Origin: Patescibacteria group bacterium
GTDB taxonomy: Bacteria; Patescibacteriota; Patescibacteriia; JBHPGJ01
Assembly: GCA_042570545.1 (NCBI GenBank)
Contig: JBHPGJ010000008.1
Span: forward strand, 1-61,516
Direction: 5' to 3'
Length of the DNA stretch: 61,516 nucleotides
This document shows, in pieces, positions 25,765-25,976 of this stretch. Under the pieces are notes generated by a model that saw only the letters and a program-made list of their open reading frames with translations, had not been told where the DNA came from and did not search any database. Each line of letters begins with the position of its first letter. Within the stretch, counting starts at the first letter, position 1. The position numbers and the translations under genes were made by a program.

Positions 25765-25802
25765 AATTTACTTGACACTGAAAATTATATGTATATAATG
25801 AT

Positions 25803-25976
25803 TCTTCCGACCTAAATCTTTGGTACACGTGCTTTGACGGGTTTTTCAAAGCTAGCTTAAGCATAATGTGACACATAGCTACCTGTCTCACGGTATCAAG
25901 GACAGCTCATCAAAGGGCTGTATCGTTCAAGTGGTCGGCGCCTCGTCTCTGAAACATGGGACGAGGCATTATTTTT
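25803..25976 (+). ncRNA. Unidentified structured RNA candidate 2
   Basis: TTGACA-16-TATAAT (25772-25799). Closing stem CCGACC/GGUCGG. Multi-branched interior. Terminator GCCUCGUCUC/GGGACGAGGC followed by AUUAUUUUU. Confidence 0.55.

Follow-up and report, generated by a model that had tools for sequence, protein, structure and literature searches.

A probable structured small RNA gene restricted to one clade of Patescibacteria

INTRODUCTION

Patescibacteria (CPR) are ultra-small, mostly uncultured episymbionts, and we know of almost nothing that has been described about RNA-based regulation in them. The RNA reported here, RNA2, is best placed against four described systems. Trans-encoded intergenic small RNAs are like RNA2 in anatomy, size, non-coding nature and narrow lineage, and they share with it a fast turnover of sequence at a retained locus. 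However, RNA2 lacks a conserved seed and a chaperone context, and no target can be identified for it. It keeps its terminal helix and the base of its main hairpin, a pattern not typical of small RNAs that act through a seed. 6S RNA (SsrS, RF00013) shares a size of 135-170 nt, an abundant-looking nature, a consensus housekeeping promoter, paired ends and a shape that is kept better than the sequence. In 6S RNA a two-sided central bubble separates a long closing stem from a terminal stem, whereas RNA2 has only 6 bp in its closing stem, forms a three-way junction, finds no Rfam match at E-values up to 10 and has a far narrower distribution. Small RNAs of the DapZ/MicL type derive from 3' UTRs and have an internal promoter. 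The counterparts of RNA2 in three relatives (L025, L026 and L027) double in a similar way as the 3' UTR of a VanW-family gene, and in the window RNA1, the neighbor of RNA2, takes that position. RNA2 differs from this type in having no known target, and since it lies behind the terminator of RNA1, it is a purely independent unit. Transcriptional riboswitches also have a multi-helix domain closed by P1 and an intrinsic terminator directly after it, but RNA2 has no downstream gene in the same unit, no antiterminator alternative and no match to an Rfam aptamer.

The window is the whole 61,516-nt stretch of DNA that was analyzed, contig C8 of a 97%-complete Patescibacteria genome of 1.0 Mb (G000). 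Among the species genomes compared, its nearest kin are related at class level only.

RESULTS

Genomic context

The VanW-family gene and pepA are separated by a gap of 695 nt, which holds three strongly folding units, RNA1, RNA2 and RNA3 (Table 1). RNA1 begins 4 nt past the VanW stop codon and has its own 10-bp terminator, so that it doubles as the 3' end of VanW. It is a rod-like RNA of ~135 nt with a z-score of -5.0 including the terminator, and its CAGACUU motif recurs in the units of L025 and L027, within their 3' domains. RNA1 and RNA2 show no detectable paralogy in covariance-model and pairwise-alignment comparisons. pepA follows 280 nt beyond RNA2; the convergent RNA3 lies in between, and pepA has a promoter-like site of its own. 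No second copy of RNA2 was found in the genome, and a BLAST search with RNA2 against 60 genomes of the class matched the source genome alone.

Table 1. Positions of RNA2, its elements and its neighbors in the window
Feature	Position	Strand	Remarks
VanW-family gene	23714-25555	+	
RNA1	25559-25764	+	promoter TTGACA-16-TATTAT to terminator
RNA2 unit	25772-25976	+	promoter to terminator
-35 hexamer TTGACA	25772-25777	+	12/12 promoter matches together with the -10 hexamer
-10 hexamer TATAAT	25794-25799	+	spacer 16 nt
RNA2 body	25806-25939	+	134 nt
P1, 5' strand CCGACC	25807-25812	+	pair probability >0.97; the preceding U completes the 5' motif UCCGR
P2, irregular 84-nt hairpin	25818-25901	+	P2a, P2b, bulge, P2c and apical helix
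P2a, 9 bp	25818-25826/25893-25901	+	
P2b CGUG/CACG, 4 bp	25828-25831/25889-25892	+	
CUUU bulge of P2, 4 nt	25832-25835	+	
P2c, 7 bp	25836-25842/25881-25887	+	
Apical helix of P2, AGCUA/UAGCU, 5 bp	25850-25854/25876-25880	+	
P3 hairpin ACAGCUC-AUCAAA-GGGCUGU, 7 bp	25902-25921	+	fold prediction; strands 25902-25908/25915-25921
J3/1 AUCGUUCAAGU, 11 nt	25922-25932	+	predicted single strand; no conservation in relatives
P1, 3' strand GGUCGG	25933-25938	+	closes RNA2
Intrinsic terminator	25940-25976	+	10-bp stem 25940-25949/25958-25967, loop of 8, then AUUAUUUUU
RNA3	25985-26175	-	-35 26175-26170; TGn and -10 TAATCT 26155-26147; hairpin 26110-25991; U-run 25990-25985
pepA	26251-27750	+	

Promoter and terminator

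The features of the RNA2 unit support a stand-alone gene on the plus strand that runs from promoter to terminator, and its transcript is predicted from the DNA alone. The first-pass annotation had proposed a TTGACA-16-TATAAT promoter, and it is present without a single deviation. Transcription is predicted to start 6-7 nt past the -10 hexamer, at about 25805-25807. Perfect promoters of this type occur 11 times in the 1.0-Mb genome against ~1.3 expected from base composition, an enrichment of ~8-fold. The RNase P RNA gene of the same genome is preceded by a near-perfect TTGACA-16-TATGAT. The enrichment and the RNase P RNA promoter together make it reasonable that a consensus promoter marks a stable, abundant RNA here, and they support the view that near-consensus promoters of the source genome drive stable RNAs such as RNase P RNA.

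The 10-bp terminator that had been proposed together with the promoter is also found. Seven of its ten pairs are G-C, and ATTATTTTT follows the stem directly on the 3' side. The terminator abuts the closing helix P1. The G+C content is 46% in RNA2, compared with 24% in the neighboring spacer and 40% in the window. RNA2 is very probably a real, separately transcribed and tightly folded non-coding RNA of ~170 nt.

Secondary structure

In the minimum-free-energy fold, the first bases of RNA2 pair with GGUCGG located 127 nt downstream. Helix P1, proposed earlier as the CCGACC/GGUCGG closure, P2a (CUUUGGUAC/GUAUCAAGG), the apical helix of P2 (listed as UAGCU/AGCUA, with the two strands in the order AGCUA/UAGCU) and P3 (listed as CAGCUC/GGGCUG, extended to (A)CAGCUC/GGGCUG(U)) all have pair probabilities >0.97. 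The fold also includes P2b (CGUG/CACG) and P2c (GACGGGU/ACCUGUC), which are absent from the earlier list of helices. Two other pairings on that list find no support in the predicted fold. Both GCUUUGA/UCAAAGC and CUGUC/GACAG, the latter put forward as an alternative, are in the sequence, but they compete with the main fold, their probability is ~0 and forcing them costs 6.7 and 8.6 kcal/mol, respectively. The suggested switch or pseudoknot is thus thermodynamically unsupported.

The idea of a self-contained, multi-branched RNA agrees well with the stability of the fold, which is strong and strand-specific. Without the terminator, the RNA2 body has a folding energy of -48.3 kcal/mol, compared with -30.0 +/- 3.3 kcal/mol for dinucleotide shuffles (z -5.5), and its reverse complement is far less stable at -34.9 kcal/mol (z -1.8). 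The minus strand folds more weakly because several G-U pairs are possible on the plus strand only. As a control, 60 random native windows of 134 nt have z-scores that average -0.26 and go no lower than -3.5.

Coding capacity and known RNA families

Two ORFs overlap RNA2, one of 83 aa on the plus strand (GTG at 25868) and one of 42 aa on the minus strand. No Shine-Dalgarno sequence precedes either of them, and the 83-aa ORF extends across the terminator and RNA3. The first-pass annotation had named a conserved peptide as the finding that would speak against a non-coding RNA; tblastn of the RNA2 frames against the four counterpart units gives chance-level matches only.

An Rfam scan of the window, the gap and the relatives' loci, at the gathering score and at E-values up to 10, returned only tRNAs, 5S rRNA and chance miRNA/snoRNA matches, and no family for RNA2 at either threshold. 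The covariance model of 6S RNA does not match in the gap or in the whole genome at E-values up to 10. Its shape does not fit the RNA2 junction either, in which the 5' strand is 5 nt long, and the rod formed by the L028 counterpart has no large bubble comparable to the central one of 6S RNA. The SRP RNA models (RF00169 and RF01854) have no match in the gap or genome, and no helix-8 motif, a GNRA tetraloop with AGG/AGCA loops on either side, is seen by inspection. A tmRNA (RF00023) was rejected as RNA2 has neither a CCA end nor a tag frame and a tmRNA-like gene lies elsewhere beside smpB. Inspection also rejected RNA2 as a piece of tmRNA or as 5S rRNA. The UUCAAGU of J3/1 lacks the T-stem of a T-arm, and a K-turn is not formed, with no tandem G-A after the bulge. 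A riboswitch or leader was rejected as well, because the next element is the convergent RNA3, pepA is under its own promoter-like site, and there is no antiterminator and no Rfam aptamer.

RNA2 has the layout of a generic trans-encoded small RNA gene: promoter and intrinsic terminator both belong to the unit itself, and no ORF in it is conserved. No single-stranded seed is conserved among the five units, and a genome-wide search for complementarity gives no target above chance, the longest match being 13 nt (E ~2). A C-rich anti-Shine-Dalgarno loop is absent from RNA2. RNA2 is an unclassified small RNA gene restricted to one clade.

Counterparts in related genomes

Among 5.8 billion protein clusters, the closest VanW and PepA proteins are 55-61% identical, and both point to the same four genomes (L025-L028). 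For VanW, the identity between the RNA2 genome and these relatives is 56-59%. L025, L026 and L027 retain the order Hsp20-VanW-[gap]-PepA-RuvB, and in L028 ispG is inserted in the Hsp20-RuvB stretch. Two contigs of the L027 genome are identical across the VanW-PepA gap. Each of the four relatives has one unit at the syntenic locus, compared with two (RNA1 and RNA2) in the source genome. All four have a -35/-10 promoter whose -10 hexamer is TATACT, and exactly 6 nt separate this hexamer from UCCGR, as in RNA2. The bodies are ~120-140 nt long, with ~110-130 nt between the 5' UCCGR and the 3' YCGG that pairs with it, and the terminator abuts this helix. In L025-L027 the units begin 0-50 nt past the VanW stop codon with no terminator between, so that the unit doubles as the VanW 3' UTR and terminator. 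Four of the five genomes have 10-45 nt between the end of the unit and the 3' end of RNA3, which is convergent with it; in L027 a 91-codon ORF lies between the two.

A descriptor made of the promoter, UCCGR, YCGG and the terminator matches only in the window, L026 and L028 (1.54 Mb, both strands). L025 and L027 escape it only because of a G-U pair and a terminal mismatch. Orthology of the five units is argued from the retained locus, promoter geometry and terminal helix. Their interiors are quite different. Against shuffles, the L025-L027 units have z-scores of -0.8 to -2.2, which are not significant. The L028 unit has neither P3 nor J3/1, so the three-way junction itself is not conserved.

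The bodies resist objective comparison. With nhmmer, searches of RNA1, RNA2 and RNA3 against the fetched loci found homologues for RNA3 only. A covariance model of RNA2 alone (R1) missed the L025-L028 counterparts with filters at default and off, and a second model (R2), for which the L025-L027 units were aligned by hand with N padding, has no match at RNA2 or RNA1 at E-values up to 10. Pairwise local alignment of the bodies is no better than shuffles (z-scores ~0). In a manual structural alignment, hand-fitted to the structure, 92% of the cells are paired and 12 of 26 columns show compensatory changes; it lines up a P2a of 4+1+4 bp, an invariant CGU/ACG in P2b and a 3-nt bulge. Because of the hand-fitting, the covariation count leans towards the structure. 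With four relatives only and bodies that objective methods cannot align, there is no rigorous covariation for RNA2. The RNA bodies appear to have diverged beyond detection by covariance models or alignment, with the locus retained.

The RNA2-type unit is absent from remoter relatives (VanW 46-48% identical) and from 23 further VanW loci, where RNA3 is present. A metagenome scan with the 18-mer core of RNA3 gave mostly chance matches in coding DNA, and at the true metagenomic RNA3 loci an RNA2-like unit was not found (in L056 the upstream DNA is too short to tell). The unit is thus confined to one family-level clade and has a fast-evolving interior. As far as these searches reach, RNA2-type units occur in only five known genomes.

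RNA3, the convergent neighbor

RNA3 is more notable than RNA2, as it is covarying, class-wide and outside Rfam. An alignment of 24 copies has 36 consensus pairs, and 31 of these show compensatory changes. An invariant one-sided loop CACGACAAGCAUGG is located opposite UUCUUG. The promoter TTGACA-17-TGnTA..T is conserved to the right of RNA3, and a U-run follows the closing stem. Searched with a model built from the 24-copy alignment, 137 of 151 class genomes yield one copy, compared with only 3 of 115 from the phylum's other classes. RNA3 is mostly single-copy and usually adjoins a VanW-family gene. It is absent from Rfam, and the Rfam 6S model has no match in the gap or genome; RNA3 may be a miniature 6S-type RNA of the class. 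The failure to find the Ffh M domain in the genome (below) makes it unlikely that RNA3 is an SRP RNA.

Other elements were observed near RNA3 in more distant genomes. In L005, L008 and L015, a conserved GACGAAAAAACGG-hairpin-CCG lies to the right of RNA3 (window orientation) and is followed by a TGTCAAG promoter-like site; in these three distant relatives it may be a further small RNA. At L030:4900-5150, about 350 nt of extra DNA between VanW and RNA3 contains repeated inverted segments of the ATCCCGTTAGAAGC / GCTTCTAACGGGAT type, and this insert looks like a small mobile or repeat element.

Other RNA elements of the source genome

A tmRNA-like gene of 408 nt lies at C2:70820-70413 on the minus strand, just downstream of smpB (C2:70870-71298). 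Its 5' GGGGAUG pairs with the 3' CAUCUCC-A-CCA (G3-U70), the putative tag is ANAFAAPKLASVVA*, and the T-loop is odd (GGGGAGUAUUACCCC). ARAGORN reports no tmRNA in the genome, and RF00023 matches tRNAs only. The small SRP RNA model of Rfam has no match in any of 41 class genomes or 121 phylum genomes, and the large SRP model has none in the source genome. The Ffh M domain (PF02978) was not found there either, with positive controls in 14 of 14 genomes. Either SRP is extremely divergent here or its RNA-binding part is missing.

Elsewhere in the window, CCCGGCAA/UUGCCGGG closes a G+C-rich element at positions 21604-21760 of the minus strand, with a U-run after it. Within this element, ACCACCUCC is similar to the anti-Shine-Dalgarno sequence of 16S rRNA, and the element has no Rfam match at the gathering score. 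Two of the 11 perfect promoters, C3:12838 and C6:36625 (both minus strand), are followed by TTAGCACTC-N9-GAGTGCTAA, which we take to be the CIRCE operator of HrcA-controlled heat-shock genes. At C4:10356 (minus strand) and C9:18811 (plus strand) there are ORF-free promoter-to-terminator units with -0.48 and -0.37 kcal/mol per nt. These fold about as tightly as RNA1 and RNA2 and are orphan small RNA candidates.

DISCUSSION

We lean towards reading RNA2 as a clade-specific, strongly expressed, trans-acting structured RNA that is recognized by a protein as a folded object. The sigma-70 consensus promoter would fire ~6 nt upstream of UCCGACC. In the predicted transcript, P1 would enclose P2, P3 and the 11-nt single strand, with the Rho-independent terminator abutting it. 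Paired ends and the terminator hairpin would give a nuclease-resistant, abundant RNA able to act in trans. RNA2 would belong to a small set of clade-specific units that occupy one conserved locus and are convergent with class-wide RNA3. Shared among these units would be the promoter, a closing helix formed by 5' UCCGR and YCGG, and CGU/ACG(G) at the base of P2. The folded RNA may be bound by a protein as a scaffold, decoy or substrate. No single strand is conserved, but the terminal helix and the P2 base are, which favors protein recognition over seed pairing. The gene neighborhood indicates no protein partner.

It is unlikely, by comparison, that RNA2 is a base-pairing riboregulator. In that case J3/1 or one of two loops, that of P3 or the apical one, would bind one or more mRNAs and change how well they are translated or how stable they are, and the scaffold would only protect the RNA. 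The anatomy is that of classical trans-encoded small RNAs, the predicted fold leaves the 11-nt strand and several loops unpaired, and the source genome has several more orphan promoter-to-terminator units. However, no single strand is conserved across the five units, J3/1 being missing altogether in L028, the longest complementarity in the genome stays at the chance level, and there is no C-rich loop of the anti-Shine-Dalgarno kind.

A more speculative view, to which we give a low probability, is that the five UCCGR units are an undescribed class of structured RNA functionally coupled to RNA3, either as its protein-recognized partner or antagonist or as a conditional terminator that silences RNA3 by antisense read-through. 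If this coupling is true, one clade would gain an additional layer of control over a housekeeping RNA.

Taken by itself, a conditional terminator acting in cis is quite improbable. Read-through would be antisense to RNA3 (or to pepA) and would tune RNA3 by interference or antisense pairing. The short distance between the unit and the 3' end of RNA3 in four of five genomes is consistent with this, and a P1-closed domain abutting a terminator is the layout of a transcriptional riboswitch. On inspection, however, P1 and the terminator have neither a spacer nor an antiterminator pairing between them, the alternative pairings are 6.7-8.6 kcal/mol worse, and no Rfam riboswitch matches. The 91-codon ORF separates the unit from RNA3 in L027, and most genomes with RNA3 have no unit.

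We regard as equally improbable that the locus is functionless, a fortuitous or decaying promoter-terminator pair around hairpin-rich DNA, for example what is left of a mobile or duplicated element at a fast-changing intergenic site. The sequence of the body is not conserved even in the closest relatives, and the window has two units compared with one in each of these. A full-consensus promoter, a strong terminator, a one-strand z of -5.5 and a raised G+C content are nevertheless jointly unlikely by chance, RNA2 is single-copy in the genome, and the promoter spacing and closing helix are kept across five genomes despite the divergence of VanW.

A highly divergent housekeeping RNA missed by standard models, either a 6S-like RNA-polymerase binder or SRP RNA, is very doubtful. 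It would explain why searches of the whole genome detect neither a 6S nor an SRP RNA, and the consensus promoter, the length of 135-170 nt and the paired ends agree with it. But RNA2, with its 6-bp closing stem and its three-way junction, does not have the 6S layout of closing stem, bubble and terminal stem, the SRP helix-8 motif is missing and the Ffh M domain was not found. Class-wide spread, as for RNA3, would be expected rather than five genomes, and tmRNA and RNase P RNA are accounted for at other loci. That the overlapping ORFs of 83 and 42 aa encode a small protein is hardly credible, with no Shine-Dalgarno sequence, the longer ORF crossing the terminator and RNA3, and only chance-level links to the counterparts.

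The source genome has several strongly promoted orphan structured RNAs. For annotating such genomes, the RNA3 family and the divergent tmRNA are of wider use than RNA2. RNA2 itself shows a mode of evolution in which the locus, promoter geometry and terminal helix persist and the body is rewritten. If a partner is found, RNA2 would be among the first functional non-housekeeping RNAs of the phylum.
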